Positions 7,278 through 54,920 of a stretch of DNA of 64,000 bases are shown in pieces (the first letter of the stretch is position 1; each line of letters opens with the position of its first letter). The stretch covers positions 29,514-93,513 of IMG/VR virus record IMGVR_UViG_3300042879_005260; one strand, written 5' to 3'. The notes under the pieces are model-generated. The model was not told the DNA's origin and did not search any database. It worked only from the letters and a program-made list of their open reading frames with translations. Origin of the DNA: a virus. Lineage: Duplodnaviria > Heunggongvirae > Uroviricota > Caudoviricetes. The position numbers and the translations under genes are program-made.

Positions 7278-7378
7278 CAGGTCAACACCTTTCGTTTATG
7301 GGTCATCTCTAGCGCCGTGAAATTAAATGATGATCTAGGTCTGCTGTCAATACCTTTCGTTTATGGGTCATCTCTAGC
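7278..7378 (-). CRISPR. mini-array A: 2 repeats (36 bp), 1 spacer (29 bp)
   Basis: repeats 7278-7313 (degenerate distal) and 7343-7378 (gene-proximal, gctagagatgacccataaacgaaaggtattgacagc in gene sense); spacer 7314-7342. Confidence 0.6.
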
Positions 7379-7707
7379 ATACGCATACATAAGTCTTTGA
7401 TTTCCTGATTGTTAAGACCAAATTTTTGATTTAATTTTCTCCAAATTTTATCATAATTAACTAATAAAATCGGATTTTTTTCATCCCTATCCGCATCATC
7501 CGCCATTAAATTTAGCCCACTTTTATCCTTATATAACATCCAACCTGGATTTTTTTCCGAAGGAATCATCTTTAAATTTGACATAATTTCATATAAAAAC
7601 TCTTCAGCGGGAGAAAATTGTTTGGTGTTACCAATCAATTCTTCTGCCCAACCAAAATCATCAAATTGTTCTTTTAGAATTTGTTTTACTATTTCACTAA
7701 TTTTCAT
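7309..7707 (-). CDS. array-associated family protein (FDDFGW...LEMTHKRKVLT); 3' end runs into mini-array A
   Basis: homologous over full length to 21508..21873, 39154..39597, 52997..53419; C-terminal LEMTHKRKVLT encoded by first repeat; ORF tail is read-through of spacer. Confidence 0.55.
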   Translation of the reverse strand: MKISEIVKQILKEQFDDFGWAEELIGNTKQFSPAEEFLYEIMSNLKMIPSEKNPGWMLYKDKSGLNLMADDADRDEKNPILLVNYDKIWRKLNQKFGLNNQEIKDLCMRMLEMTHKRKVLTADLDHHLISRR

Positions 7708-19764: not shown

Positions 19765-19788
19765 TAACAAATAAATAAATGATTAAAA

Positions 19789-21507: not shown

Positions 21508-21873
21508 ATGAAAAACCTTATAAGAAAAATATTAAGGGAAGAATTTGATGATTTTGATTGGGTGGGGGAAATTAAACAATTTTCACCCGCTGAAGAGTTC
21601 TTATATGAAATCATGTCCAATTTAAAGGCGGTTACTTCGGAAAAAAATCCAGGTTGGATGTTTTATAAGGATATAAGTGGACTAAATTTAATGGCGGATA
21701 ATGTGGATAGAGATGAAAAAAATCCTTATTTATTAGTTGATTATCGTCAAATTTGGAGAAAATTACGTCAAGAATTTGGCCTTAATGAACAAGAAATCAG
21801 TAATTTATGCGTGCGTATGCTGGAAATGACCCATAAACGAAAGGTATTGATAGCTGCATCTCCCGGATTTTGA
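21508..21873 (+). CDS. array-associated family protein; 3' end is first repeat of mini-array B
   Basis: MKNLIRKILREEFDDFDWVGEIKQFSPAEEF...CVRMLEMTHKRKVL; stop lies inside spacer 1. Confidence 0.55.
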   Translation: MKNLIRKILREEFDDFDWVGEIKQFSPAEEFLYEIMSNLKAVTSEKNPGWMFYKDISGLNLMADNVDRDEKNPYLLVDYRQIWRKLRQEFGLNEQEISNLCVRMLEMTHKRKVLIAASPGF

Positions 21874-22115
21874 AACGGTGCAGAGCTGGAAATGACCCAT
21901 AAACGAAAGGTGTTTACAGCAAAAACTTGACGAACTTTTTTCGGAGTCGCTGGAAATGACCCATAAACGAAAGGTGTTTACAGCGCCAATTCATAATTCC
22001 TGGCAAATCCCTCTGCTGGAAATGACCCATAAACGAAAGGTGTTTACAGCTGTTACTGATGGTGGTATTGTGGCATACAGCTGGAAATGACCCATAAACG
22101 AAAGGTATTACTCCA
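21819..22115 (+). CRISPR. mini-array B: 5 repeats (36 bp), 4 spacers (30, 28, 30, 29 bp)
   Basis: repeats at 21819, 21885, 21949, 22015, 22080 (consensus gctggaaatgacccataaacgaaaggtgtttacagc; first and last degenerate at 3' end); spacers 21855-21884, 21921-21948, 21985-22014, 22051-22079. Confidence 0.7.
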
Positions 22116-28487: not shown

Positions 28488-28742
28488 ATGATTAAGAAAA
28501 AATTAAAAAAATTTCATTTTCAAACCCCAGAGAAAGACACAAGTTTAGCAGATTATTGGGGACCGATTGTTGAGGGTCTTATAAATAGACAACAGACTCA
28601 AGAGGTGTTATTAAATTTTGTACCCACAAATGTAAATATAACTTATACTGTTTTAGAAGATGGCTGGTATACTGATGGTTATTATGATACCACTTTTGTG
28701 AAAAGTGATATTATACCTTTTAATTTTAAAATTAAAAAATAA
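28488..28742 (+). CDS. hypothetical small protein
   Basis: ORF track 84 aa. Confidence 0.3.
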   Translation: MIKKKLKKFHFQTPEKDTSLADYWGPIVEGLINRQQTQEVLLNFVPTNVNITYTVLEDGWYTDGYYDTTFVKSDIIPFNFKIKK

Positions 28743-28748
28743 ATATTT

Positions 28749-28777
28749 TTGATAATTAAAAATATTTCGTATCTTTG
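28749..28777 (+). promoter_or_regulatory. Bacteroidetes-type promoter
   Basis: TTG at 28749, 18-nt gap, TATCTTTG at 28770-28777, ATG at 28793. Confidence 0.5.
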
Positions 28778-28792
28778 TAAAAAATAAAAAAC

Positions 28793-29181: not shown

Positions 29182-29208
29182 TTTTATGACTCTTTGAAAT
29201 ATTTTAAT

Positions 29209-29279
29209 GTCCGATGGTGTAACGGCTAACATTTCTGAATTTGACTCAGAAGATTTCAGGTTCGAATCCTGATCGGACA
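29209..29279 (+). tRNA. tRNA-Gln(UUG)
   Basis: acceptor GTCCGAT/ATCGGAC, anticodon arm TCTGA-ATTTGAC-TCAGA, T-arm TCAGGTTCGAATCCTGA. Confidence 0.7.
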
Positions 29280-29288
29280 ACCATAACC

Positions 29289-29361
29289 GGAGCTTTCGTA
29301 TAGCTGGTGCGTACGTTGGACTGAAAATCCAAAGGACTAGGCTCGATTCCTAGAGGCTCCA
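29289..29361 (+). tRNA. tRNA-Phe(GAA)
   Basis: anticodon arm TTGGA-CTGAAAA-TCCAA; T-loop CTCGATT. Confidence 0.7.
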
Positions 29362-29367
29362 CTGAAC

Positions 29368-29441
29368 GGCGTCGTAGTCAAGTGGTTTAAGACAGGACTC
29401 TCATAAGGTCCCATTCGGGGGTTCGAATCCCTTCGACGCTA
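29368..29441 (+). tRNA. tRNA-Met/Ile2(CAU)
   Basis: anticodon arm GGACT-CTCATAA-GGTCC; T-arm GGGGGTTCGAATCCCTT. Confidence 0.65.
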
Positions 29442-29446
29442 CAAAT

Positions 29447-29519
29447 TCTCCTGAAGCATTGCTGGCGATGCACCTGACTTGTAATCAGGATACAATCGGT
29501 TCGATTCCGGTCGGGAGAT
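29447..29519 (+). tRNA. tRNA-Thr(UGU)
   Basis: anticodon arm CCTGA-CTTGTAA-TCAGG; T-loop TTCGATT. Confidence 0.65.
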
Positions 29520-29525
29520 CCAAAT

Positions 29526-29597
29526 AGTTCTGTAACTCAATGGAAGAGTACCAAGCTTACATCTTGGCTGTCGTTAGTTCGATTCTAACCAGAACTA
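29526..29597 (+). tRNA. tRNA-Val(UAC)
   Basis: acceptor AGTTCTG/CAGAACT; anticodon arm CCAAG-CTTACAT-CTTGG. Confidence 0.65.
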
Positions 29598-29604
29598 CTT
29601 AAAT

Positions 29605-29679
29605 GCCTCCATGGCGGAATTGGTAGACGCGTCACTCTTAGAAAGTGAATTTTTGTAGGTTCGAATCCTACTGGGGGCA
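29605..29679 (+). tRNA. tRNA-Leu(UAG), short variable arm
   Basis: Leu-type D-arm GCGGAATTGGTAGACGC; anticodon arm TCACT-CTTAGAA-AGTGA; discriminator A; only 75 nt. Confidence 0.55.
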
Positions 29680-29690
29680 CAAAAAAATAT

Positions 29691-29721
29691 TTGGTAAATT
29701 AAAAAATTTTATCTATATTTG
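29691..29721 (+). promoter_or_regulatory. Bacteroidetes-type promoter inside the tRNA cluster
   Basis: TTG at 29691, 20-nt gap, TATATTTG at 29714-29721, directly upstream of tRNA-Glu. Confidence 0.45.
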
Positions 29722-29733
29722 TACAACAATAAC

Positions 29734-29805
29734 GGTCGGTTCATCTAAGGGTTAGGATACAAGATTTTCATTCTTGTCATAGGGGTCCGAATCCCCTACC
29801 GACTA
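29734..29805 (+). tRNA. tRNA-Glu(UUC)
   Basis: anticodon arm CAAGA-TTTTCAT-TCTTG; T-arm AGGGGTCCGAATCCCCT. Confidence 0.65.
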
Positions 29806-29876
29806 CAAAAGGTTGATTGGGAATTCGGTGAACCGATGAGGTGAGTGAAACTAATCATAAAGTTCTTTGATATTAT

Positions 29877-29964
29877 GGCTGGGTGGCGAAATTTGGTTAT
29901 ACGCGAAAGACTTAAAATCTTTTGGACCGTGAGGTCCGTGCGGGTTCGAGTCCCGCCCCGGCTA
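29877..29964 (+). tRNA. tRNA-Leu(UAA), class II
   Basis: anticodon arm AAAGA-CTTAAAA-TCTTT; long variable arm TGGACCGTGAGGTCCGT; T-arm GCGGGTTCGAGTCCCGC. Confidence 0.7.
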
Positions 29965-29970
29965 CTAAAC

Positions 29971-30047
29971 ATGGTGATAGAGGAGTCAGGTTTATCTCGC
30001 TTGGTTTGGGACCAAGAATTACGTGGGTTCGAATCCCACTCACCATA
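29971..30047 (+). tRNA. tRNA-Pro(UGG)
   Basis: acceptor ATGGTGA/TCACCAT; anticodon arm CTTGG-TTTGGGA-CCAAG. Confidence 0.6.
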
Positions 30048-30055
30048 CTAAACAA

Positions 30056-30128
30056 GCCCTCGTGGCGCAACGGTGAGCGCAGGATGCTTATATCATCAAG
30101 GCTGTTGGTTCGAGTCCAACCGAGGGTA
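30056..30128 (+). tRNA. tRNA-Ile(UAU) candidate
   Basis: anticodon arm GGATG-CTTATAT-CATCA gives anticodon TAT; T-arm GTTGGTTCGAGTCCAAC. Confidence 0.5.
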
Positions 30129-30227
30129 CTAAAAAAAATATTAATCCTAGATTAAAATGAAAATAAAATATAAATATAAACAGTAAGGTTAGTCCACTAC
30201 GAATGGGCTAACCTTATAAAATGTTAA

Positions 30228-30299
30228 CCGCTCGTAGCAAACTGGTGTAGGCAATAGACTTTTAATCTATGGGGCTGGGTTCGACTCCCAGCGGGCGGA
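30228..30299 (+). tRNA. tRNA-Lys(UUU)
   Basis: anticodon arm ATAGA-CTTTTAA-TCTAT; T-arm CTGGGTTCGACTCCCAG. Confidence 0.65.
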
Positions 30300-30324
30300 C
30301 AAAAACCAAATTAAATAAGATTAC

Positions 30325-30840
30325 ATGAAAAATGATATGATATTAGTTTTAAACTCTGATTACACACCACTGACGGTTGCAAGTGTTAACAGGGCTTTTA
30401 AATTAATTTATAAAGAAAAAGCTGAAATTATAATATCTAAAGGTTATATTAAAACTGAAAAAAAAGATTACGAAAAACCTTTAATAATTAGATTATATAA
30501 TCATATAACTTATCCGTATAAAAAAGCAACGTTATCCAGGTACAATTTATATAAAAGAGACAGTTATAAATGCCAATATTGTGGTTCCGATAAAAACCTA
30601 ACCATGGATCATATTTTACCAAGAAGCAGGGGCGGTAAAAATACCTGGGACAACCTGGTTACTTGTTGTAACAGATGTAACGTTTATAAAGGTGATAGAA
30701 CGCCAGAAGAGGCAAATATGTTTTTAATTAAAAAACCTTTTGCACCAAATCATTTATTTTTTATAAATAAAATGTATAAAACACACGAAGAATGGAAACC
30801 ATATTTAAAGGAAACTAAAAATGAACAAATTGATTTTTAA
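30325..30840 (+). CDS. HNH homing endonuclease
   Basis: CQYCGSDKNLTMDHILPRSRGGKNTWDNLVTCCNRCNVYKG HNH motif. Confidence 0.75.
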   Translation: MKNDMILVLNSDYTPLTVASVNRAFKLIYKEKAEIIISKGYIKTEKKDYEKPLIIRLYNHITYPYKKATLSRYNLYKRDSYKCQYCGSDKNLTMDHILPRSRGGKNTWDNLVTCCNRCNVYKGDRTPEEANMFLIKKPFAPNHLFFINKMYKTHEEWKPYLKETKNEQIDF

Positions 30841-30914
30841 ATATCTGGGTTGGTTACTTTACCCAGATGGTAAACAAGGAAAAGAACATAGGCATAAAAA
30901 TTTAAAAAATATTT

Positions 30915-31106
30915 ATGGAAAATAATAAAGCCATATTTGAAGAAGGTCGGGATTATTACTTAAAAGATGGTAAAGTCATTATGACCGAATATTATTTAAT
31001 TAAAAAAGGTCGTTGTTGTGGTTCGGGTTGTTTATTTTGCCCTTATGAACCTTTTCATACTAAGGGAACCACTAAATTGAGAAATATACCTAAAGATAGT
31101 TATTAA
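30915..31106 (+). CDS. small Cys-rich protein
   Basis: GRCCGSGCLFCPYEP cysteine cluster. Confidence 0.35.
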   Translation: MENNKAIFEEGRDYYLKDGKVIMTEYYLIKKGRCCGSGCLFCPYEPFHTKGTTKLRNIPKDSY

Positions 31107-31109
31107 AAA

Positions 31110-31141
31110 TTTTTTTTAATGAAAAAAAATACTTATATTTG
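31110..31141 (+). promoter_or_regulatory. Bacteroidetes-type -7 box (TTATATTTG)
   Basis: TATATTTG at 31134-31141 overlaps the track ATG at 31139, so the real start is probably ATG 31163. Confidence 0.4.
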
Positions 31142-31162
31142 TACCACAAAAAAAATAAAAAA

Positions 31163-31417
31163 ATGAACTGGATAAAAAAATTAATTCCCGCCTATGTTGA
31201 AGTTAGGTCTTTGTACTGGGTAAACTATTCTAAAAAAATGGACGCAGAACTAAATAGAATTTTTGAATCTATTGACAACGATGATTATGTAACAGCAGAA
31301 AAACTTATTGCTGAATTTGAATCAAAACATAGTCAAGGTGAAGTTCCTTTGTGGGTTGCTGTTGAAATGGCGGCAATACACAGAGCAAAATCAATGTTGA
31401 ATTTTTTAAATTCTTAA
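31163..31417 (+). CDS. hypothetical protein (start adjusted to MNWIKK)
   Basis: track ORF 31139..31417 trimmed because the promoter -7 box overlaps its first ATG. Confidence 0.35.
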   Translation: MNWIKKLIPAYVEVRSLYWVNYSKKMDAELNRIFESIDNDDYVTAEKLIAEFESKHSQGEVPLWVAVEMAAIHRAKSMLNFLNS

Positions 31418-31603
31418 TATAAAAACCAAAATAACTATGATAAAAAACAAGTACATTTTAATGGCGGCAGCTGCATTATCAGTTCCCTTCATTCTAGCAT
31501 GGACATTTAACCATGTCAATCCATGGCTCGCATTCGGAGCCGCACTATTTTTAGTATTATTAATCAATAACTATTTCACAACAAACAAAAACAACAATCA
31601 AAA

Positions 31604-32434
31604 ATGAAAACAAAAATGAAAACAAAAATGAAATCAATCCTTTTTAGCTTAATCGTAGTAGTAACCCTTAGCTCATGTGAGCGTGTCGCACCCAATTATT
31701 ATGGAGTTCTCATGGAAAACTACGGTAAAAATGGCAAAGAAGACTACTCGAAACAACAAGGGAGAGTAAACACAACTGCTCCAGGTACAGAACTGTTTCA
31801 AGTACCAGCTTTTGAACAAAGAGCCGCATTTACTAATGAAGACGGTACCGATCGTGTATTGAAGCTCAAAGCAGCAGATAACACTGAGTTTAATGCCAAA
31901 CCACTTTATTCCTATAAGGCAATGCCTAATCGAGTAGTTGATTTGGTATTTCAAAATGCTCGACTTGGTAGTGGTGATAGCTTTATGAAATCCCTAGAAG
32001 ATAATGTGTTAGAACCTCATATTTACGATTTAATCAAAGAAGAAAGTAGAAAATACATTACTGACTCTCTTATGGCTAATGGTGGTTCATTAAAGTTTGA
32101 AGAGCGAGTACAAGCTCTAGTTAAGAAATCTTTCGAAGACAAAGGTTTAGAGTTAATTACCTTCAGTGCAAACCTTGACTTCAGTGATAAAGTAAAAGCT
32201 AAAATTGATTCTCGTAATGAAGTAAATACAAACATATCAGTGTTAGATCAACAAATTGCTGAGCAGAAAAAGAGAAACGAATTGGCTGAATTACAAGCAC
32301 AGGAAAACATAATCAAATCAAGAGGTATTACTCAAGAGTTGTTGCAACAACAAGCACTTGAAAAATGGAATGGTGTGTTACCAAGTACTTGGGCTGGGAA
32401 TGGTAGTTTACCTTTTGTAAAAGCAGTTAAGTAA
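31604..32434 (+). CDS. SPFH/band-7 domain lipoprotein
   Basis: lipoprotein signal ...TLSSC; prohibitin-like core with C-terminal coiled coil AEQKKRNELAELQAQE. Confidence 0.55.
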   Translation: MKTKMKTKMKSILFSLIVVVTLSSCERVAPNYYGVLMENYGKNGKEDYSKQQGRVNTTAPGTELFQVPAFEQRAAFTNEDGTDRVLKLKAADNTEFNAKPLYSYKAMPNRVVDLVFQNARLGSGDSFMKSLEDNVLEPHIYDLIKEESRKYITDSLMANGGSLKFEERVQALVKKSFEDKGLELITFSANLDFSDKVKAKIDSRNEVNTNISVLDQQIAEQKKRNELAELQAQENIIKSRGITQELLQQQALEKWNGVLPSTWAGNGSLPFVKAVK

Positions 32435-32443
32435 TAAAGGTTT

Positions 32444-32520
32444 AGTCAGGTGGCTGAATTGGCGACAGAGGCACTCCATTAGACAATGGGTGGATGCAGG
32501 TTCGAGTCCTGTCCTGACTA
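32444..32520 (+). tRNA. tRNA-like element with aberrant anticodon region
   Basis: acceptor AGTCAGG/CCTGACT and T-arm GCAGGTTCGAGTCCTGT are canonical, but the central region forms an extended CCATT-AGAC-AATGG hairpin instead of a 7-nt anticodon loop. Confidence 0.4.
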
Positions 32521-32540
32521 CTAAAAAATTAAAAAATAAA

Positions 32541-32570
32541 TTTGACTTTAAATAAAAAACACTTATATTT
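32541..32570 (+). promoter_or_regulatory. Bacteroidetes-type promoter (TTGACT..19..TATATTTG)
   Basis: TTGACT at 32541, TATATTTG at 32563-32570, ATG at 32596. Confidence 0.5.
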
Positions 32571-32595
32571 GTATTAAAATCAAACATTTAGACTT

Positions 32596-33510
32596 ATGAA
32601 AAAGAACTCACTCTCAACTGCCGGACTTTCGTTATCTCAAGCACAATCAATTAGTAATCTTTGTAATCAAAGAGCTAAAGATATTGAGGCGGATTTAAAA
32701 AATGTTAATAATGTTGAGAAGGTTTTAAAAATAAACAATGAAGTTTATGTTGAAACGACCGCAAAAAAACTGCCTGAAAATACCATAGAGATTTTATCAG
32801 AGAAAGCAAAATTACATGCTTGTCAGGCATTTTTAATGGAAAACATAAAAGCCAAAGATCAGTTGATAACTGAATTACAACGTAAAGTTTTTGTTTCTAA
32901 TTTAGAAGAACCTAAAATACCAGAATATAAAACATACGATGAATTACCTTTGGTGAATGAAGTTTGGGGTTGGGGCCAGCTTTCGGTTTCTGAATATAAT
33001 GAATATTTGGAGGCAGAGGCTTACGCATCCCATATTGGACAGTTTATCCATAAAGACGGTAAATTGGACACTCTTCGTAGAGAACTACCAAATATTAAAA
33101 CTTTGGAGTGGATTACGATTAAAGATGGTGAAAAAACACCTTTAAAGGTTACTATTCACCACACTCAGAGCCAATTATTGGAATTACATGAAAATTTGGC
33201 CGCAATGCACCGTAAATACGAACAACGTGTTAATTACTTTAAAGCAAAAGTAAAAAACATGGTAACCGAAGAAAATGCTCGTATTTCTAAGGAAAATGCA
33301 TTTAAGTTGGCGGAAGTAATAAAAGAAAACGAAATTCTTGAAAAAGAATTCACCAACCTGTATAAAAATTACCAATCTGAAAACCTAAAATTGAAACAAG
33401 ATTTTGAGGTGAGTCGTCAAGAACAAATTAAAGAAGTTTCTTCTTTAAGAATTCAGGTGGACCCAAGATTTCAAGAGGTTGTTAATTTTTTTTTAAGTAA
33501 AATGGCATAA
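32596..33510 (+). CDS. coiled-coil hypothetical protein
   Basis: ORF track 304 aa. Confidence 0.4.
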   Translation: MKKNSLSTAGLSLSQAQSISNLCNQRAKDIEADLKNVNNVEKVLKINNEVYVETTAKKLPENTIEILSEKAKLHACQAFLMENIKAKDQLITELQRKVFVSNLEEPKIPEYKTYDELPLVNEVWGWGQLSVSEYNEYLEAEAYASHIGQFIHKDGKLDTLRRELPNIKTLEWITIKDGEKTPLKVTIHHTQSQLLELHENLAAMHRKYEQRVNYFKAKVKNMVTEENARISKENAFKLAEVIKENEILEKEFTNLYKNYQSENLKLKQDFEVSRQEQIKEVSSLRIQVDPRFQEVVNFFLSKMA

Positions 33511-33849
33511 TGAAGGTGGTTCAAAAGTAAGCATAAGCCGATATTTTGAACTTTTGTATTTGGTGGTTTGGTTCTTAATGTAATGAATATTACTCAATAA
33601 TTAATTTACATTTTTTTATCATCTAGGTGATAAAAATACCAAACCGCTTCCTTACAAACTTTAAAAACTGAGATAGAACTCACGGTTAGACAGGTTATCC
33701 TATAGTGGAAGAATTGGCTAACAAATTGAGACTTGGTTTTTGGCTTTGTCTTTGATGTGAGGAAGGTCTTTGATTTAGTTTTTGATTTAGACGTTATCTA
33801 CACACCAAATCACTAAATAACTTCATAAAACATTAGTTCTTTAAATTTT

Positions 33850-34121
33850 GCACCTGTAGCTCAGTTGGATTAGAGCAACTGCCTCAAATCGGGGGTGTTA
33901 TGTCAGAAATGACATAATAGAATTCATCAAATTCGGGGAATCCTGTAAAATGGTAATCCCGAGCGAAGCCTGAAAAGGAACGTGTAGAGACTTGACGGTG
34001 AACACCTAAGTTAGAATCTAATAAGGTGATGGGAAAGTCCAGACCACAAACGTAAATGGTAGTGAAAACTATAGTGGTATGTCTAAGCAGTAGGTCCCAG
34101 GTTCGAATCCTGGCAGGTGTA
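33850..34121 (+). tRNA. tRNA-Arg(UCU) interrupted by a group I intron
   Basis: 5' exon GCACCTGTAGCTCAGTTGGATTAGAGCAACTGCCT (33850-33884); 3' exon TCTAAGCAGTAGGTCCCAGGTTCGAATCCTGGCAGGTGTA (34082-34121). Spliced product closely matches bacterial tRNA-Arg(UCU). Exon ends in U, intron ends in G. Confidence 0.6.
33885..34081 (+). ncRNA. group I intron (trnL-intron-like core), ~197 nt
   Basis: GGTAATCCCGAGCGAAGCC resembles the trnL intron GGGCAATCCTGAGCCAA element; GTGTAGAGACTTGACGG resembles the catalytic-core GCAGAGACTCAATGG; P7 pairing GACUU/AAGUC present. Confidence 0.55.
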
Positions 34122-34341
34122 CAATGAGTAAGAGATACTCAGCAGTCTTTGGTTCAAGACTCATTTAACAATGAACCCGTTCAAACTGGACAGCGGAATG
34201 CCAGTTCTTAGGGTCAAAGGCGCCAATCACAGCTCCTCCTTCGTAGTGTGACTTTTTTAATAGGGGATGCCCTGTAGGTTTCATCAATAGGAAAAAAACC
34301 GGAATGACTACTCACCTGGAATCTCAAGGTGGGGAAATTTA

Positions 34342-34433
34342 GTCGGGTGGCGGAATTGGTAGACGCTGGCTTGAGAAGAATGTAGAGAGAGCCTTAAAGG
34401 ACATTCAATACAGGTTCGAATCCTGTCCTGACA
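34342..34433 (+). tRNA. tRNA-like element (Leu-type D-arm), anticodon arm unresolved
   Basis: GGCGGAATTGGTAGACGC D-arm and AGGTTCGAATCCT T-arm; 3' half nearly identical to the 32444 element; middle forms a GAATGT...ACATTC hairpin with a 17-nt loop. Confidence 0.35.
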
Positions 34434-34455
34434 ACTAAAAAAAATACAAAAATAC

Positions 34456-34486
34456 TTGATAGATTAAAAAATATTTAGTATCTTTG
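34456..34486 (+). promoter_or_regulatory. Bacteroidetes-type promoter P1 in RNA island
   Basis: TTGATA..20 nt..TATCTTTG (34479-34486). Confidence 0.5.
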
Positions 34487-34597
34487 TTATGTTCTTTGGA
34501 AAGGAGGTCTGGTGTGAACCTGAGATATTTGAGATTCCCGATAAGGGAACGATTTTAAGCGACTCAGTAGCACATTCCAAACAACAAAAAAAATATT

Positions 34598-34628
34598 ACA
34601 AAAGTACTTGACAAATTAAAAAATGTTT
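34598..34628 (+). promoter_or_regulatory. Bacteroidetes-type promoter P2 (near-duplicate of P1)
   Basis: TTGACA..20 nt..TATCTTTG (34621-34628); ~50-bp block nearly identical to P1. Confidence 0.5.
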
Positions 34629-34634
34629 AGTATC

Positions 34635-35810
34635 TTTGTAAGACAAAATCGGGAAACCGAATCGTTCTTTGAAAAAATAGATTATCCGTTCAGGTGAAAG
34701 TAAGTTCTTCGGAACTATGATAACTTGATAAAGATATTGGGCCGTGTATAGTCCTTAAATAAACTACGAAAGTAGGATAAAGTGAAATCATCTGTGTTAG
34801 TGGTTTTGCGTCTTGGGAAACCGAGGTCGAGTACACAAGTGGGATATCATCTAACCTTTAGTACTGAGGGCAACGCTTTAGGGAAAATGGTTAGATGACT
34901 AAGCAATGTGGATTGTTTAGTTGAGGTGGGAACACCGATAAGAATAACCCATAGGAATCTTACAAAAAATGTGATTATCCAGTTACATTATTGTGGGTTC
35001 CAATACAAGAGAGGACTTAAAACCGAAAGGTAAGATGGAGAACGAGTGGTGTCGCTACCATCCCTATCAAAGATTTACCAAAATCTTGATATGAAGTAAT
35101 CTTAAAATATGGAAATGGGGACATTTCACTGAGTAGTTTGGTATTCTTTTCTTCAAAAGAGAACGGAGCCTACGACGGACCACTACTTGGACACATCCAC
35201 AACACAAAAACTTTATTATGAAAATTAAAGTCCATTTAATAAATAATTCTAAAGCAAAAGTGTTCGTCAGGTGTTGATGAAAGGTGATTACATAGTCATG
35301 AGTTGTTCATGGCACACTGAGACCGCAAGTTGATGTGTATTCTTGTGAAAAACCTCTAGTCCCGCAAGGATCAACTGGGGAGGCATCCTCGGAGAGAGTT
35401 GAGTAGAAAGAGAGTAGTTGGCACCTCTAGGAGTTGTATACCTAAAAAACCATCACTGAGAAATACTTCTCAAAAGGAAGTGGAAATAAAGGGAAACAAT
35501 AATCCTTTTAAAGGTTCTCACAAAAAACGTGTATTCTCAGCGTAAGTTTTAAAAAATATTTTAAAAGTAAAAAATCAAAACCACTGGTTAAACCCACTGG
35601 GGATTAGGCTCTAATGATGTCCACCCTTTGGTAAGTACTCACAATAGGCCGGCTTCTTTAATGGCTGATACGTGTATAAGTCCGAGCATAAAACACGAAC
35701 TCTACTTACTTTGTGAAATTACTGCCAATTGCAGACTACTATGTGGAATAAATAGATGACCTTCTGAACATAAAGATAAGTGCTCTTGGTTTGATTTTGT
35801 TATAATATAA
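34635..35810 (+). ncRNA. candidate large structured non-coding RNA (~1.2 kb, unknown family)
   Basis: downstream of promoter P2; no ORF above 60 aa on either strand; locally GC-richer than genome; many local hairpins; T-arm-like GGTTCGATTCC near 35855. Confidence 0.3.
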
Positions 35811-35959
35811 GGCGGGCGGACAGGTTGGTATCTGAGGAAGTCTCATAAGCTTCAAAAATCTGGTTCGATTCCAGAGCGTCGCAACTAATGTGTCACCAAT
35901 CCCTGGTTCAAATTGGTGGTCTCGGTGAAAGGTACTAGTCCTATTTCACCCAAACATAA

Positions 35960-36030
35960 GCGAGTATAGCATAAAATTAATGCGCCGGTTTTCCAAACCG
36001 AAGAAGGTGGAGAGTTACCATCTACTCGCT
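35960..36030 (+). tRNA. tRNA-Gly(UCC) candidate with atypical D/T loops
   Basis: acceptor GCGAGTA/TACTCGC; anticodon arm CCGGT-TTTCCAA-ACCGA; T-stem GGTGG/CCATC with non-canonical loop AGAGTTA; D-loop lacks GG. Confidence 0.4.
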
Positions 36031-36039
36031 CAAAAATAA

Positions 36040-36110
36040 GCGGTATTTGTGTAGTGGTAAGACATGACATTGCCAATGTTAAGACGTAAGTTCGATTCTT
36101 GCATACCGCT
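36040..36110 (+). tRNA. tRNA-Gly(GCC)
   Basis: acceptor GCGGTAT/ATACCGC; anticodon arm TGACA-TTGCCAA-TGTTA; T-arm GTAAGTTCGATTCTTGC. Confidence 0.6.
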
Positions 36111-36156
36111 CTATTGATTTTTTTACATTGTAAACATATATTTATATTAAAAAAAT

Positions 36157-36708
36157 ATGAAAGATAAATTTGATGATTTTGGTGACGACTTTTTTGGTCG
36201 TTGGGAAGAGTTTAATAGATTAATGGTTAACTCACCTTTGATAAGAGATGAAATGGAAAAATTTCTTCGAATGCTAATGGATTCCAATGATTTAAATAAC
36301 GAAATTTCAAATATTAGAATCATACCTTTGAATGCTTATAAGCCAAATGATATTGATTCTTTTGATATTCCAGAAAACGAATTGGATGTTGAAAAAGGTG
36401 AAAATGAAAACGGTAAATGGGAAACTAAAAGTTGGACATCTCCAGATGGTTCTATGAGTTTTAAATCTTTTAGTATGTCATCAACACCCGAAGAATTTTT
36501 TTATAAAAATTTAATGTCAGATCTTTTTCAAACTGGTGACAATAGAAATTCAAAAAAATATACTACAGAAGATTTGAAAAATTTTAAAATAGAAAAACTC
36601 CAAAAATCTTTAAATGCCGCAGTTGAAGTTGAAGATTATGAAAAAGCTGCGGAACTTAAAAAAATGATTGAAAAAATAAAAGAAGAAAATTTTGATAATA
36701 AAAAATAA
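36157..36708 (+). CDS. acidic protein with UVR-like motif
   Basis: C-terminal LQKSLNAAVEVEDYEKAAELKKMIEKIK resembles UvrB/UvrC (UVR) domain. Confidence 0.4.
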   Translation: MKDKFDDFGDDFFGRWEEFNRLMVNSPLIRDEMEKFLRMLMDSNDLNNEISNIRIIPLNAYKPNDIDSFDIPENELDVEKGENENGKWETKSWTSPDGSMSFKSFSMSSTPEEFFYKNLMSDLFQTGDNRNSKKYTTEDLKNFKIEKLQKSLNAAVEVEDYEKAAELKKMIEKIKEENFDNKK

Positions 36709-36727
36709 TTTTATATATTTGTGATAT

Positions 36728-36890
36728 ATTTATAAAACAGAAAATGAAAAATTGGCAAAACATATCGATTAACCATAGTAACCGAATTAGTTCGGAATGT
36801 ATGAGGTGTGTCTTGTCCAGATTTAAGGTATAATTATTTTTATAAAAAATTGGATAACCCACCTCAAGAAATTTGATGGTGGGTTTTTTG
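36728..36890 (+). ncRNA. candidate small RNA (~160 nt) between promoter and terminator
   Basis: TTGATA..TATATTTG promoter at 36692-36721; terminator hairpin 36856-36885 plus T-run; only a 29-aa ORF inside. Confidence 0.3.
36855..36890 (+). terminator. rho-independent terminator
   Basis: aacccacc...ggtgggtt hairpin plus T6. Confidence 0.6.
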
Positions 36891-37006
36891 TTATTTGACA
36901 TATTGGAAATAAATTGGAGAGTTAAGCAGATGCATTGGAGCGTCGACCAGCTTTGAAACCTGGGTCTCGTTAAATTGAGTGGGGGTCGGGTCCTCAGCTC
37001 TCCGCT

Positions 37007-37081
37007 GTGTCTGTAGCTTAGATGGTTTAAAGCGTCTGATTGTGGTTCAGAAGACCGTGGGTTCGAATCCCACCAGACACC
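37007..37081 (+). tRNA. tRNA-His(GUG)
   Basis: acceptor GTGTCTG/CAGACAC; anticodon arm TCTGA-TTGTGGT-TCAGA; T-arm GTGGGTTCGAATCCCAC. Confidence 0.65.
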
Positions 37082-37087
37082 TTATAG

Positions 37088-37159
37088 GGGGGTGTAGCTC
37101 AGAGGCAGAGCAAACTACTGTTAATAGTTAGGCCGAGATTTCAAAATTCTCCATCCCCG
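37088..37159 (+). tRNA. tRNA-Asn(GUU)
   Basis: acceptor GGGGGTG/CATCCCC; anticodon arm AACTA-CTGTTAA-TAGTT; T-loop TTCAAAA. Confidence 0.55.
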
Positions 37160-37165
37160 CAAAAT

Positions 37166-37238
37166 AGTACCGTGTCTGAACGGTTTAGGAACTATCCTGA
37201 TAAGATAGGAAAAGTGGGTTCGACTCCCACCGGTACTA
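37166..37238 (+). tRNA. tRNA-Ile(GAU)
   Basis: acceptor AGTACCG/CGGTACT; anticodon arm CTATC-CTGATAA-GATAG; T-arm GTGGGTTCGACTCCCAC. Confidence 0.65.
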
Positions 37239-37244
37239 CAACAT

Positions 37245-37326
37245 GCATCTGCTCATTGGTGTGACCAACCGGCTCCAACCCGGTAATGCGTAAGCGTGGT
37301 TAAGAGTTCGAATCTCTTCGGATGCG
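37245..37326 (+). tRNA. tRNA with anticodon CCA (Trp?) and long extra arm, atypical
   Basis: acceptor GCATCTG/CGGATGC; anticodon arm ACCGG-CTCCAAC-CCGGT; T-arm AAGAGTTCGAATCTCTT; 82 nt. Confidence 0.4.
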
Positions 37327-37331
37327 CAAAA

Positions 37332-37418
37332 GGAAGATAGGTAAATATTGGTTTGTTACAACATCCTGCTAAGATGTCCCAGGTAAAACTGGTGAGGGTT
37401 CAATTCCCTTGTCTTCCG
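37332..37418 (+). tRNA. tRNA-Ser(GCU), class II
   Basis: anticodon arm ACATC-CTGCTAA-GATGT; long variable arm CCCAGGTAAAACTGGT; CCA encoded. Confidence 0.65.
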
Positions 37419-37424
37419 CCAAAT

Positions 37425-37499
37425 AGTCCCATAGCTCAACGGATTTAGAGTACAGTGCTACGAACACTGCGGTTGAAGGTTCAAATCCTTCTGGGACTA
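37425..37499 (+). tRNA. tRNA-Arg(ACG)
   Basis: acceptor AGTCCCA/TGGGACT; anticodon arm CAGTG-CTACGAA-CACTG; T-arm GAAGGTTCAAATCCTTC. Confidence 0.65.
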
Positions 37500-37540: not shown

Positions 37541-38041
37541 ATGATTAAGAAAAATATTAAAAAACATTTTCTTCTTGAAAATAATGTTAATTCTTTAACT
37601 ATAAGTGGTCCTGGTCTTACTCTTGGTCAAAGTCTTAATATTGTTATGAATAATGGGATTGTGTTAACACAACCAATACGTTATTGTTTATCAATACAAC
37701 GTAACCAAGGGGTCAAAAGATTTTATGTTAACCTTTTAAACCCTATATCTTATGTATATAATAACAATTTTAATCGAGAATGGTTACCACTGCATTTAAA
37801 AATTACAGATTCTATTAATTGTGACTCACCCCAAGAATGGTTTCAGGATTGGTTCTTCGATGATCAACAACAAGGTACTTTTTTAACCTTAGAAAAAATT
37901 AACCCTACAGGTGAAATTACTGGTTGTTATAATTTTCACAATTCTTTTTTACAAGAACTCAACAATGAAGTTGTTTTTGATAGATTGGTAAATCCTATAG
38001 AAATTAAGATTAAATACGCTAATATGAATGTTTTGTTTTAA
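37541..38041 (+). CDS. hypothetical protein
   Basis: ORF track 166 aa. Confidence 0.4.
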   Translation: MIKKNIKKHFLLENNVNSLTISGPGLTLGQSLNIVMNNGIVLTQPIRYCLSIQRNQGVKRFYVNLLNPISYVYNNNFNREWLPLHLKITDSINCDSPQEWFQDWFFDDQQQGTFLTLEKINPTGEITGCYNFHNSFLQELNNEVVFDRLVNPIEIKIKYANMNVLF

Positions 38042-39105
38042 ATTCTATCATAAACATCTTCTTCAAAGTAAGGTAGAACTTCTTTTCTACTAGGATATTC
38101 ATCAAACCTTGGAGACCAAAGTTGCCCATTTTCCGTTAACATATTTTCAAATAAACTTTTAAATAGATAAGAGTCAAAATCATGACAATCATCACAATAT
38201 TCTTCAGGATTTTCAACTTTACGGTTATTTAAACAATGTTCAAAACAACCATAAAAATAATCATTAATCACCCCTTCAAATAAGTCAGTAATATCAAATT
38301 TTAAAAAATATTTGGTTCTACCTTTTTCGTTAGTTGTGGTACCCTCAATAGGTTGACCAAATACATCTGTTATGGCTTCTTTTATAGATTTATAAATATT
38401 GTCAGTTGTGGCAACATTATAAGCACTATCATAAGCCCAACCAAACTCTCTTTTTAATTCTAAAAAAGTATCGTCATCATCTATTAAACGACCTAAAGAT
38501 TCTGGGTTTTCTGTTAACCAATTAAAATATTCGTTATCCAATAGACGTTCTTTTCCTCCGGACATTAAATCTTCAACATAATAGATTTCTCTTTTCTCTG
38601 GTAAATTACCAAAAATATCTAATTGTTTTGGGTTGTAATTATCAGGGATAACATATTCTTTTTTAATATGTTTTAAAATATATTCATAAAGTTTATTATT
38701 ACCTACAACACCTTCTAACCAAACATCATTAAACCAACTGCCGTAGGTATCGTTATAAGGTTCCCACCAATTGTTTTCATCACAAAATATTTTTTCAACC
38801 AACCAAGAATTAACTATACCGTATTGGGTTAAATTATCATCATTTTTGAAAAAACCAGTAAAGTCACAAAAACCATCTACCGTCATCATAATTCTATCAC
38901 CTTCTAAATTTATATCACTAAATTCGGAGGCTAGTATTGGCATGATTCTTTTTTTAAGGTTTACACTTTTTGATTTGCCGTAATTTGCACGATACCAAAG
39001 TATGCCAGCCGGAATTTCAACTGTTTCAACATTATCAATTAAATCTCCCACCCAATCAAAATCATCAAATTCTTCTCTCAATATTTTTCTTATAAGGTTT
39101 TTCAT
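38038..39105 (-). CDS. array-associated family member (conserved N-terminal module fused to an unrelated 330-aa body)
   Basis: MKNLIRKILREEFDDFDWVG then unrelated sequence; start abuts distal repeat of mini-array C. Confidence 0.5.
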   Translation of the reverse strand: MKNLIRKILREEFDDFDWVGDLIDNVETVEIPAGILWYRANYGKSKSVNLKKRIMPILASEFSDINLEGDRIMMTVDGFCDFTGFFKNDDNLTQYGIVNSWLVEKIFCDENNWWEPYNDTYGSWFNDVWLEGVVGNNKLYEYILKHIKKEYVIPDNYNPKQLDIFGNLPEKREIYYVEDLMSGGKERLLDNEYFNWLTENPESLGRLIDDDDTFLELKREFGWAYDSAYNVATTDNIYKSIKEAITDVFGQPIEGTTTNEKGRTKYFLKFDITDLFEGVINDYFYGCFEHCLNNRKVENPEEYCDDCHDFDSYLFKSLFENMLTENGQLWSPRFDEYPSRKEVLPYFEEDVYDRI

Positions 39106-39118: not shown

Positions 39119-39286
39119 CAGGTTAACATTTTTCGTTTATGGGTCATCTCCAGCTATGCCATTGGTAGCAGAGTGGTCTCTAACGCTGTCAATACCTTTC
39201 GTTTATGGGTCATCTCCAGCCAAAGTTCCCACGTTTTAAAAAGACATGCAGCTGTCAATACCTTTCGTTTATGGGTCATCTCCAGC
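39119..39286 (-). CRISPR. mini-array C: 3 repeats (36 bp), 2 spacers (30 bp each)
   Basis: repeats 39119-39154 (degenerate distal), 39185-39220, 39251-39286 (gene-proximal); spacers 39155-39184 and 39221-39250. Confidence 0.65.
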
Positions 39287-39597
39287 ATACGCACGCATAA
39301 GTCTTTGGTTTCCTGATAGTTAAGACCAAATTTTTGACTTAATTTTGACCAAATTTCATCATAATCAACCCATAAACAAGGGTTTTTTTCATTTCTATCC
39401 ACATTATCCGCCATTAAATTTAGCCCACTTTTATCCTTATATAACATCCAACCTGGATGTTTTTCCGAAGGAACCGCCTTTAAATTGGACATAATTTCAT
39501 AAAGAAATTCTTCAGCGGGGGAAAATTCTTTAATTTCCCCCACCCAATCAAAATCATCAAACTCTTCCCTTAATATTTTTCTTATAAGATTTTTCAT
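39154..39597 (-). CDS. array-associated family protein; 3' end runs through mini-array C
   Basis: MKNLIRKILREEFDDFDWVGEIKEFSPAEEF...CVRMLEMTHKRKVLT; ORF tail is in-frame read-through of repeat-spacer units (each 66 bp). Confidence 0.55.
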   Translation of the reverse strand: MKNLIRKILREEFDDFDWVGEIKEFSPAEEFLYEIMSNLKAVPSEKHPGWMLYKDKSGLNLMADNVDRNEKNPCLWVDYDEIWSKLSQKFGLNYQETKDLCVRMLEMTHKRKVLTAACLFKTWELWLEMTHKRKVLTALETTLLPMA

Positions 39598-39610: not shown

Positions 39611-39844
39611 CAGGTCAACACCTTTCGTTTATGGGTCATCTCCAGCTCAAATCAACTTCAATCAAAGTCCGATTCAGCTGTCAATACCTTTCGTTTATGG
39701 GTCATTTCCAGCACCCTCGCCCGGATTGTTGGAGGTGAAAAGGCTGTCAATACCTTTCGTTTATGGGTCATTTCCAGCCAGCGAATGTGAAGCGTGACAC
39801 CTCCGGTTGCTGTCAATACCTTTCGTTTATGGGTCATTTCCAGC
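39611..39844 (-). CRISPR. mini-array D: 4 repeats (36 bp), 3 spacers (30 bp each)
   Basis: repeats 39611-39646 (degenerate distal), 39677-39712, 39743-39778, 39809-39844; spacers 39647-39676, 39713-39742, 39779-39808; spacers about 50% GC in a roughly 30% GC genome. Confidence 0.7.
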
Positions 39845-41346
39845 ATACGCACGCATAAGTCTTTGATTTCTTGTTCATTAAGACGAAATTCTTGATTTAA
39901 TTTTAACCAAATTTCATCATAATCAACCCATAAATAAGGATTTTCTTTATCTCTATCCGCATCATCCGCCATTAAAGTAACCCCGCTTTTATCCTTATAT
40001 AACATTAAACCTGGATTATTTTCCGAAGGAACCACCTTTAAATTGGACATGATTTCATACAAAAATTCTTCAGCGGGTGAAAATTGTTTGGTGTTACCAA
40101 CTAATTCTTCTGCCCAACCAAAATCATCGGATTCAAATAAATTATTTATAATATCTTGAACTTCTTTTTGGTAGATACCAATTTTTTTAAACTTAATTCT
40201 ACCCGATTCAAGATGTTTTAAAAAATCAATAACATAATAACCAATTTTATGTTTTATACCATTAACTGAGTCTTCCCAGGAAATTATAAAATCATCATAC
40301 CCATCTTCCACTCTTAACTCTTCTATTTTATATTCTTCATTTGGTTTGTTGGTATAATAAAAAATAGAACCTATATAATCTTTTGGGTTTTGAAACTTAT
40401 TTTCTTTATTTTCATATAAACTACTTATTATATCATAAGCGTTTGGTAAATCACCTAAATTTTTTAAAACAAAAAAACCATTATTTAAATATTCAATAAG
40501 GATACTTATTGTCATTGTAGAATATTCTGTCATTGGTTCACCATCTTCATTTAGATCATCAGGGTCTTCCCATTCAATGTCAATTAAGTCAACAGAACTA
40601 TCTTGATCCCAAATACGATATACCACAAATTCTTCAGGGCTATAAAACTCAAATCCAATTAGATTTTCATCTTTTAAAAAATCAAATTTACCTTCCAATA
40701 ATAAAGAATTATTTTTTTCTTTATTTTCTTGAATTTTATTTTTGTTAAATAAATTTTTTAAACCATGGGTACCAACAGCCATAATAATACCACTCAAAAG
40801 TTCTTGAACATTATTAATAGTAAAACCTTTTTCTGTGGTTAAATTTTTAATAAAATCTAAAACCGGAACTGATAAAAATGTAAAACTTAAAATATCTAAT
40901 AAATCGTTAATCATGTAACCAAATTTTTTACCAAATATTTTAAATAAATTGATTGTTTTGGAAATAAAATTTAAAACTGGTGATATTTCTTTTTCAAGGC
41001 CTCTTTCTTTAATCTTATCAACAACCTCATCAATTTCTTCTTTTGGTTTTGATAGGATAATATAAATCGCAACAATTGTTAAAAGTGCAACATCATAATC
41101 CGTAACATTTAAATTTTTATTTTCTAACAAAGATTTAACTGGGCCAATAAAAGCGGAAATACCAACTCCATAAGTCATTATAAAGTTGAAATTACTTTTT
41201 AGCTGTGAAATGATTTCTTTTAACACTGGATTAGTTTTTACATCGAAACCTTTATTAATTATATTTTCATTTAAAGAATTAAGTTTACCTTTAAGATAAA
41301 CCTCTTCTAGTAGTAAATTTAAAGAGATATTAGAAATGTTACCCAT
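39658..41346 (-). CDS. large protein (562 aa) whose C-terminal ~130 aa is the array-associated family domain; 3' end runs through mini-array D
   Basis: ...FESDDFGWAEELVGNTKQFSPAEEFLYEIMSNLK...CVRMLEMTHKRKVLT; N-terminal ~430 aa unrelated. Confidence 0.55.
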   Translation of the reverse strand: MGNISNISLNLLLEEVYLKGKLNSLNENIINKGFDVKTNPVLKEIISQLKSNFNFIMTYGVGISAFIGPVKSLLENKNLNVTDYDVALLTIVAIYIILSKPKEEIDEVVDKIKERGLEKEISPVLNFISKTINLFKIFGKKFGYMINDLLDILSFTFLSVPVLDFIKNLTTEKGFTINNVQELLSGIIMAVGTHGLKNLFNKNKIQENKEKNNSLLLEGKFDFLKDENLIGFEFYSPEEFVVYRIWDQDSSVDLIDIEWEDPDDLNEDGEPMTEYSTMTISILIEYLNNGFFVLKNLGDLPNAYDIISSLYENKENKFQNPKDYIGSIFYYTNKPNEEYKIEELRVEDGYDDFIISWEDSVNGIKHKIGYYVIDFLKHLESGRIKFKKIGIYQKEVQDIINNLFESDDFGWAEELVGNTKQFSPAEEFLYEIMSNLKVVPSENNPGLMLYKDKSGVTLMADDADRDKENPYLWVDYDEIWLKLNQEFRLNEQEIKDLCVRMLEMTHKRKVLTATGGVTLHIRWLEMTHKRKVLTAFSPPTIRARVLEMTHKRKVLTAESDFD

Positions 41347-52975: not shown

Positions 52976-52996
52976 ACAGACGGATATTTATATTAT

Positions 52997-53419
52997 GTGA
53001 AAAACCTTATAAAAAAAATATTAAGAGAAGAGTTTGATGATTTTGATTGGGTGGGGGAAATTAAAGAATTTTCCCCCGCTGAAGAATTTCTTTATGAAAT
53101 TATGTCCAATTTAAAGGCGGTTCCTTCGGAAAAAAATCCAGGTTGGATGTTATATAAGGATAAAAGTGGGCTAAATTTAATGGCGGATAATGTGGATAGA
53201 AATGAAAAAAACCCTTGTTTATGGGTTGATTATGATGAAATTTGGTCAAAATTAAGTCAAAAATTTGGTCTTAACTATCAGGAAACCAAAGACTTATGCG
53301 TGCGTATGCTGGAGATGACCCATAAACGAAAGGTATTGACATCTGATGGCCTGCCTGCACGGTTTCTTGTTTTGCTGGAGATGACCCATAAACGAAAGGT
53401 ATTAACCTCATATTTATAA
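52997..53419 (+). CDS. array-associated family protein (apparent GTG start); 3' end runs through mini-array E
   Basis: VKNLIKKILREEFDDFDWVGEIKEFSPAEEF...CVRMLEMTHKRKVLT; ATG at 52994 is followed by TGA, GTG in frame. Confidence 0.5.
   Translation: MKNLIKKILREEFDDFDWVGEIKEFSPAEEFLYEIMSNLKAVPSEKNPGWMLYKDKSGLNLMADNVDRNEKNPCLWVDYDEIWSKLSQKFGLNYQETKDLCVRMLEMTHKRKVLTSDGLPARFLVLLEMTHKRKVLTSYL
53308..53409 (+). CRISPR. mini-array E: 2 repeats (36 bp), 1 spacer (30 bp)
   Basis: repeats 53308-53343 and 53374-53409 (degenerate distal); spacer 53344-53373 tgatggcctgcctgcacggtttcttgtttt. Confidence 0.6.
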
Positions 53420-53422
53420 AAT

Positions 53423-53806
53423 ATGAAAAATTTTATAAGAAAAATATTAAGAGAAGAGTTTGATGATTTTGATTGGGTGGGGGAAATTAAAGAATTTTCC
53501 CCCGCTGAAGAATTTCTTTATGAAATCATGTCCAATTTAACAATGATTCCTTCTGAAAATTATCCAGGTTGGATGTTGTATAAAGATGAAATCGGAAGAA
53601 TATTAATGGCTGATGATATTGACCTTAATGACGGGGCTCCAAGTTTATTAATATCTTATCATGGAATATTTCAAATTTTAAGAAATAAGTTCAAACTTGA
53701 ATATGGTGAGATGGTGAAATCATCTAAAAAAATATTTAATTTGGTACACAAACGCCAAGTTGATGCTGTCGGAGCACTTTATAACTTACATTTATCACAA
53801 TTTTAA
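53423..53806 (+). CDS. array-associated family member with diverged C-terminus (no array)
   Basis: MKNFIRKILREEFDDFDWVGEIKEFSPAEEF... ends LVHKRQVDAV instead of LEMTHKRKVLT. Confidence 0.5.
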   Translation: MKNFIRKILREEFDDFDWVGEIKEFSPAEEFLYEIMSNLTMIPSENYPGWMLYKDEIGRILMADDIDLNDGAPSLLISYHGIFQILRNKFKLEYGEMVKSSKKIFNLVHKRQVDAVGALYNLHLSQF

Positions 53807-54734: not shown

Positions 54735-54920
54735 ATGTTAATAGTTAAAGTCACAGGAAAAATAGATTCAGCAATTAAAGCTTTACGTTCAAAAGTTATT
54801 AAAACCCGCCAAATGCGAGAACTTAATGATAGAAGAGAATATAAAAAAGATTCAGAAAAGCGTAGAGAGATGGTAAAGAAGGCAATTCACGTTCAAAAAA
54901 AATATAAAAACAAAGATTGA
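54735..54920 (+). CDS. rpsU: ribosomal protein bS21
   Basis: 61-aa basic protein MLIVKVTGKIDSAIKALRSKV...RREYKKDSEKRREMVKKA follows the S21 pattern (IKV..AL+.F+....+....RRRE.YEKP). Confidence 0.55.
   Translation: MLIVKVTGKIDSAIKALRSKVIKTRQMRELNDRREYKKDSEKRREMVKKAIHVQKKYKNKD

Follow-up and report, generated by a model that had tools for sequence, protein, structure and literature searches.

What kind of element arises when the last codons of a phage protein gene are at the same time the first repeat of a CRISPR-like array, and how does such a gene relate to a sister gene beside it that carries no array? The question is raised by a 64,000-nucleotide stretch of a tailed virus (hereafter the window; positions 29,514 to 93,513 of IMG/VR record IMGVR_UViG_3300042879_005260), in which gene E, array E and the array-less gene E2 follow one another. 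The initial annotation described a gene at 52997 which ends in LEMTHKRKVLT and is followed by one spacer and a degenerate repeat, at coordinates that we confirm here. We suggest that this element is, with high probability, a phage-borne, cas-less mini-array of the CRISPR type, belonging to the Cas13b-type (VI-B/Bt/F) repeat family and read in guide-then-repeat order, in which the role of the 'leader' is taken by a protein gene whose last 12 codons serve at the same time as the first repeat. As to its function, we tentatively propose that the module may act as a decoy, providing guide RNAs that are inert to an effector of the Cas13b type that is present in trans.

Protein genes that run into CRISPR-type arrays

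Sixteen copies of the repeat are present in the window, where shuffled sequences lead one to expect none. They belong to five gene-plus-array modules (A–E, Table 1), in each of which the array begins inside the 3' end of a homologous gene. Gene E comprises the family domain (amino acids 1–104) and an array-read C-terminus, the open reading frame (ORF) ending in CVRMLEMTHKRKVLT. The peptide LEMTHKRKVLT(S) is coded by the first repeat, and the stop codon TAA (53417–53419) lies within the trailer. An AlphaFold2 (AF2) model of E has the same fold as E2 up to the helix at residues 94–109, and residues 118–140 are modelled with a predicted local distance difference test (pLDDT) score below 50.

The same design recurs in about 90 phage loci, always joined to a gene of this family, with a repeat unit of 36 nt; of the 89 unique spacers, 72 have a length of exactly 30 nt (range 28–31). 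A coding tandem repeat might be suspected, as 22 codons make up 66 nt and the frame of several ORFs continues through two or three repeats. It is excluded by array periods of 64–67 nt, among them 64, 65 and 67, which are not multiples of three, by stop codons that are as frequent in the reading frame of the spacers (26/72) as in the other two frames (34 and 25), and by spacer-encoded protein tails that are modelled as disordered. Terminator hairpins, or scars of recombination between paralogs (which clearly do recombine), are disfavoured as well, since the spacers are mutually unrelated and near-identical genomes differ by single, polarised units, the signature of an integrase-made array. An origin unrelated to CRISPR is therefore very improbable in our judgement. 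Integron attC sites were rejected because their core sites do not fit and unique 30-nt spacers are not cassettes.

Polarised turnover of array E

The decisive evidence for a CRISPR-type array comes from five E2-orthologous loci in other assemblies (L089–L093). Spacer S1 and the degenerate last repeat are shared between them and the window, and so are the junction ATATTTATAAAATATG and E2 itself. The window holds S1 alone, L089 and L092 hold spacers G and S1, L090 holds A and S1, and L091 and L093 hold all three (G, A, S1); every one of these differences lies at the gene-proximal end. Array D shows the same polarity when compared with L005 and L010, the trailer end being shared and the gene-proximal end differing. 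The closing stem is absent from the last repeat in 41 of 47 arrays, and is kept by the first repeat in 37 of 47 and by 32 of 38 inner repeats.

Array E thus undergoes both gain, at the gene ('leader') end, and loss, by internal repeat-to-repeat deletion. The initial annotation had spoken of snapshots of array gain and decay, and for array E, with one to three spacers among orthologous loci, this view holds. Repeats of constant length, unique spacers and polarised turnover with a degenerate last repeat agree with CRISPR arrays in general; a non-coding, AT-rich leader is not found, and a conserved protein gene stands in its place. The GC content of the spacers (0.38–0.41) is above that of the phage (0.29), which argues that they are foreign. 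With five arrays in 64 kb, changing between near-identical genomes, something must be writing spacers into phage DNA in nature.

Table 1. Gene-plus-array modules of the window and features of the E–E2 region
Feature	Position	Strand	Description
Module A	7278..7707	-	Family gene 7309-7707 and 2-repeat array (7343-7378, 7278-7313)
Module B	21508..22115	+	Family gene 21508-21873 and 5-repeat array 21819-22115
Module C	39119..39597	-	Family gene 39154-39597 and 3-repeat array 39119-39286
Module D	39611..41346	-	562-aa ORF (39658-41346) with C-terminal family domain, and 4-repeat array 39611-39844
Gene E	52997..53419	+	GTG start, 140 aa; from the ORF list, family alignments and AF2 model
GTG start codon of E	52997..52999	+	Homologous to the ATG of paralogs; single A-to-G change
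First repeat of array E	53308..53343	+	36 nt, GCTGGAGATGACCCATAAACGAAAGGTATTGACATC; also codons for LEMTHKRKVLTS
Spacer S1	53344..53373	+	30 nt, 50% GC, TGATGGCCTGCCTGCACGGTTTCTTGTTTT; conserved trailer-end spacer, identical in L089-L093
Terminal repeat of array E	53374..53409	+	Last 6 bases degenerate (..GGTATTAACCTC), closing stem absent
Conserved trailer and junction ATATTTATAAAAT	53410..53422	+	Before the E2 ATG; same junction after arrays A, C and D
Gene E2	53423..53806	+	ATG start, 127 aa; array-less family member
E2 segment homologous to the repeat	53734..53769	+	16/36 identical; encodes ..NLVHKRQVDAV

Repeats of the Cas13b type

Type VI-B arrays are characterised by spacers of 30 nt and by repeats of 36 nt that have complementary GUUG/CAAC ends and a loop with poly-U (10.1101/092577). 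As references we used the repeats given in PMC5395568 and in the datasets of PMC13187072, together with that of the Cas13bt3 CRISPR RNA (crRNA) in PMC10511502. The phage repeats align with these references, including that of the Flavobacterium columnare VI-B system, without gaps, and share all invariant columns with them. Their best identities to VI-B, BtA and F references are 20–26 of 36, while the mean among those references is 22.3; identities to other types are 12–15 (VI-A) and 11–20 (II-C) of 36. The termini, GCTGGAG...ACAGC, are those of Cas13bt3/VI-BtA repeats. Complementary ends are present as GCUG/CAGC, as in VI-BtA, or as GUUG/CAAC in variant v1f and in locus L085; pairs 1–36, 3–34 and 4–33 are nearly invariant, and pair 2–35 occurs as four pair types with seven mismatches. 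By sequence resemblance, then, the repeats fall in the Cas13b-type (VI-B/Bt/F) repeat family.

We infer that the gene strand is also the transcribed strand of the arrays, because acquisition and transcription begin at the same end in VI-B systems, because the arrays lie between co-directional genes, and because in relatives a terminator-like hairpin with a T-run comes after the array. Placed as they are between co-directional genes, the arrays would be co-transcribed with them. A promoter and terminator scan around E and E2 gave no signal above shuffles.

Each intact repeat contains a perfect TTGACA hexamer at positions 29–34 (e.g. 53336–53341). This is the upstream element of a conserved promoter-like motif, TTGAYA-N17-19-TATCTTTG, found before tRNA blocks of the window (28728–28778, 34437–34487 and 34589–34639), which we take to resemble the Bacteroidota -33/-7 promoter type. 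No downstream promoter element matching the repeat TTGACA is conserved in the spacers.

The gene family and its array-less member E2

The gene family is real: 51 homologues are close, and at profile level the family extends to 157 clusters. Its ORFs stay open in a genome of 29% GC, third codon positions vary freely, and the median ratio of non-synonymous to synonymous divergence (dN/dS) is about 0.5. No match by fold or sequence to a known function was obtained. Remote homologues end in other peptides, which recur 22 residues later, and their DNA contains repeats of other sequence, likewise 36 nt long and separated by 30-nt spacers, which begin within the gene's last codons; across the 157 clusters at least eight repeat variants occur, with the overlap of gene end and first repeat kept. 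The contigs that carry these superfamily members reach 262 and 551 kb. On the 551-kb contig (L082), which is of megaphage size, positions 11898–20456 hold several gene-plus-array modules beside a long run of small leucine-rich-repeat genes. The C-terminal placement of the family domain, as in module D, is also seen in profile matches of 326–571 aa.

The start of gene E had been described as an in-frame GTG following ATG-TGA and taken as a sign of recent indels at the module junction. The GTG in fact overlaps the ATG-TGA (52995–53000) at offset +2. In the alignment each of its bases stands opposite the corresponding base of the paralogs' ATG, and one A-to-G transition explains it with no indel. 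A sequencing error at 52994–52999, which would have undone the earlier claim, is excluded, because the same GTG is present in three independent assemblies, L091 and L092 among them, and in cluster P0014; L089 keeps ATG.

E2 aligns gap-free with the family and reads NLVHKRQVDAV at the place homologous to the repeat peptide. No repeat copy was found in or after it, even with up to 10 mismatches allowed. The initial annotation was right that E2 ends in LVHKRQVDAV and has no array; its further reading, a recent copy that has lost its repeat, does not survive comparison with the family. The 3' half of E2 is 36–44% identical to any of about 200 family members (36–40% at the amino acid level to array-bearing ones) and saturated at synonymous sites against every paralog (synonymous divergence, dS, 0.9–1.3), and E2 is conserved in at least six assemblies, with orthologues 98.7% identical at the nucleotide level. 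Nor do E and E2 share an N-terminus of 90 aa as was thought: their nucleotide identity is 94–100% over nt 1–120 and about 50% beyond nt ~200, so that only the first ~55 aa (nt 1–120) are near-identical. LVHKRQVDAV had been regarded as a remnant of the repeat; the in-register match of 16/36 is reached by about 1.3% of all windows in the sequence, and conservation of the segment does not exceed that of the remaining 3' half of E2. At the same time, E2 keeps His, Lys, Arg and Val of the motif H-K-R-x-V, three of them through synonymous changes (CAT>CAC, CGA>CGC, GTA>GTT), which indicates selection on this motif at the protein level. The models of E and E2 place it at the end of helix 4 and in a basic loop. 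E2 itself is modelled as a confident alpha/beta fold (pLDDT 83.8) with an extra C-terminal strand at 115–119, absent in E.

Descent of E2 from an array-bearing copy, with decay of the repeat after array loss, could be argued from the fact that all 50 close homologues carry the repeat and the E2 cluster alone does not, from the retention of HKRxV at the homologous place, and from best full-length matches to array-bearing members. We nevertheless consider it unlikely, as the entire 3' half diverged anciently, the protein is closer (44% over 43 residues) to an array-less type, P0121 (IFNLIFKKNVDNV), the extra strand is modelled with confidence, and E2 is stable across assemblies. We conclude that E2 is an old, stable, long-diverged array-less member of the family with a 5' end homogenised with its neighbours. 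The high 5' identity of E and E2 represents a tract of mosaicism or gene conversion, situated in an N-terminal module which unrelated genes have as well.

This N-terminal module, MKNLIRKILREEFDDFDW, together with the upstream GATATTTATAAAATATG, is common to six ORFs, including the starts of family genes. Two of the ORFs that share it, 6872–7264 (-) and 38038–39105 (-), are otherwise unrelated and directly follow arrays A and C. It may be a module of recombination or gene conversion, or a common targeting or translation signal. Positions 997–1368 of L089, compared with 52997–53307 of the window, hold another N-terminal variant with an AEELVGNTKQ insertion typical of modules A and D; as this different N-terminus stands before an array with the same trailer spacer, paralogs evidently exchange their 5' parts.

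Orphan arrays and the decoy reading

A scan of the window and of related loci for ORFs with two terminal HEPN motifs gave none, no Cas family was matched by any of the scanned proteins, and matches to terminal proteins gave no longer contig in which cas genes could be sought beyond the window. Three effector candidates were rejected: an 828-aa ORF beside array A, considered as a compact Cas13, is Rad50/SbcC-like, a 957-aa ORF after the array in L007/L008 is a family B DNA polymerase, and a 611-aa ORF with two RxxxxH motifs is an SNF2 helicase. Protospacers were found neither in ~0.7 Mb of related phage loci, nor for 68 spacers in 50,697 GenBank phages, nor for six spacers in IMG/VR; S1 has no match in any of these three sets. 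The protein family gave no hit in 185,579 cellular genomes, in a search sensitive only to two peptide patterns.

If the module acts as a decoy, the 3' end of the gene's mRNA would carry repeat hairpins that are intact. They would be bound and processed by a Cas13b-type effector that acts in trans and comes either from a Bacteroidota host or from another part of the phage genome, each guide being the 30 nt upstream of a repeat. Because the guide precedes the repeat and nearly every array has a crippled last repeat, a minimal array such as E would mainly give rise to a 'leader-derived' guide made from the gene's own sense sequence, with no target. In VI-B systems a leader-repeat hairpin normally blocks the leader-derived guide, because this guide, by sequestering Cas13b, lowers defence (PMC13187072); for arrays C and D, free folding of the first repeat behind the gene is predicted (closing stem P 0.87–0.96). 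As an RNA decoy, the five modules, with their 16 repeats within 64 kb, would occupy the effector with guides that are inert and so weaken defence of type VI, and spacer uptake would be a by-product of host adaptation machinery recognising the gene-repeat junction. A PKD-domain ORF at 2378–3622 (-) with a C-terminal sorting domain of the type IX secretion system (T9SS) points to a host among the Bacteroidota, the phylum of the F. columnare and Porphyromonas gingivalis VI-B reference systems.

A number of results weigh against this reading, with regard both to the type of repeat and to its use as a decoy. The loop is CAUAAACGAAA in gene orientation, that is, A-rich, and U-rich on the opposite strand only, whereas every reference repeat has a U-rich loop. 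Orientation is left unsettled by sequence alone (mean 19.2 vs 18.1 of 36), covariation in the hairpin is not significant (84% of cells paired, not above shuffles, 53/500), and no Rfam CRISPR repeat family matched at gathering thresholds or at relaxed E-values. The first repeats of arrays B and E in the window are weakened, that of E by a G35-to-T change (CAGC to CATC) that disrupts its closing stem. Searches for cas genes, covering the window and ~10 kb around the related loci, found none. A 20-mer core of the repeat is absent from 185,579 species genomes, and an 18-mer core retrieved only phage-type arrays of up to five repeats, and no cellular array, from Joint Genome Institute (JGI) metagenomes. 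The missing cellular array counts against a decoy because a decoy should closely mimic the host repeat; the exact-core search gave no cellular repeat near-identical to that of the phage, as known mini-arrays have, and the host may have a diverged one. Finally, a pure decoy has no need of unique, long-kept spacers.

Alternatively, the spacers might be working guides, with which the phage hijacks a Cas13b-type effector against transcripts of competing phages or of the host, in the way that other viral mini-arrays serve conflict between viruses or takeover of the host. The spacers are unique, exact in length and kept (S1 in six assemblies, the one beginning TGATGATTT in five loci), their GC content marks them as foreign DNA, known viral mini-arrays target related viruses (PMC11656645), and arrays of huge phages target competitors and host genes (PMC7162821). 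We hold this to be rather unlikely, however, given the lack of protospacers in the related loci, GenBank phages (68 spacers) and IMG/VR (6 spacers), the crippled repeat that the oldest spacer precedes, and the fact that Cas13b activation results in collateral RNA cleavage and dormancy (PMC13187072), which would stop the resident phage too.

It may also be that gene and repeats form a self-contained module, in which the protein binds or modulates its own repeat RNA, as a protein-RNA anti-CRISPR or a new RNA-guided device of the phage, or an effector acting at the first repeat controls the mRNA and the protein dose. The overlap of gene end and first repeat is kept across the superfamily with different repeats (157 clusters, at least eight variants), H-K-R-x-V is kept synonymously in array-less E2 and so matters to the protein, the motif is modelled as a basic loop at the end of helix 4, and an external effector or host array was not found. 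On the other hand, exact insertion of 30-nt spacers needs a Cas1-Cas2-type integrase, which is absent here, and co-variation of repeat and protein is automatic with the first repeat being part of the gene. We see little likelihood in such a module, and as little in the broader idea of the gene-plus-array unit as an autonomous, ancient phage invention, in which the protein and its own repeat act jointly, e.g. as a type VI inhibitor or re-programmer or as an RNA-guided device; if this were true, the superfamily genes and type VI-B-like repeats would share an evolutionary origin. Among these functional explanations, the decoy is the one that we favour over working guides and over a self-contained protein-RNA unit, as a possibility still short of an even chance.

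Genomic setting

The relatives of the window are IMG/VR contigs with a family B polymerase; no similar genome was present among 50,697 GenBank phages. The window itself encodes DnaJ, a Rad50-like ATPase and about 20 tRNAs. The tRNA cluster (29208–37499) contains a full-length GOLLD RNA at 35129–35543 (+; 306 bits) and a group I intron at 33875–34062 (+). Downstream of E2, a 61-aa gene at 54735–54920 (+) has an orthologue annotated as ribosomal protein S21 (PF01165).

Relation to known systems and significance

Viral mini-arrays and repeat mimics as such are already known. Like viral mini-arrays and the orphan arrays of huge phages (PMC11656645; PMC7162821), the arrays described here are short (1–4 spacers), compact and polarised, have no cas genes nearby and presumably depend on an effector in trans; the presence of several in one genome is another common trait. 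Known mini-arrays, however, have repeats identical to those of the host and spacers against related viruses, while for the modules described here no matching cellular array or target was found; the repeats of these modules are VI-B-like, a type not reported on viruses in the surveys consulted, and instead of standing behind a non-coding leader, each array continues in frame from a conserved gene. RNA anti-CRISPRs (Racrs) are likewise phage-encoded repeat mimics that could tie up Cas proteins unproductively (PMC10651486), but they are solitary, non-coding and placed behind a promoter, in contrast to arrays inside or behind an ORF. The Racr survey reported candidates for every CRISPR type except VI, with ORFs masked before the search (PMC10651486), and because of this masking it would have missed the repeats described here.

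With VI-B and VI-Bt arrays the modules share the 36-nt repeat, 30-nt spacers, complementary 4-nt ends, the 3' motif RAAGGUA..ACARC, spacer gain at the transcription-proximal repeat and a Bacteroidota context. They differ in having no cas13b or csx27/28 nearby, an A-rich loop, a weak inner stem (2–6 pairs), a coding 'leader' and no more than five repeats. The 30 nt before the first repeat, together with that repeat, would make a target-less guide similar to the extraneous crRNA of VI-B systems (PMC13187072); there a host hairpin suppresses this RNA, whereas the first repeats of arrays C and D are predicted to be free, which would favour its production.

No description of the gene-plus-array design was found in the literature consulted, and there is apparently no earlier account either of virus-borne arrays with repeats of the Cas13b family or of arrays that form part of a gene. 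Type VI-family repeats such as these are common in large freshwater phages, and they occur five times in the 64 kb. It is unusual for one sequence to serve both as a CRISPR repeat and as a protein motif under conservation, and this double use gives a direct handle on the birth and death of arrays. If the protein takes part, the module would be a new kind of protein-RNA unit; if, as we tentatively favour, the modules occupy Cas13b with guides that are inert, type VI systems would have in them a candidate for a natural inhibitor based on RNA, useful for the control of Cas13 tools.
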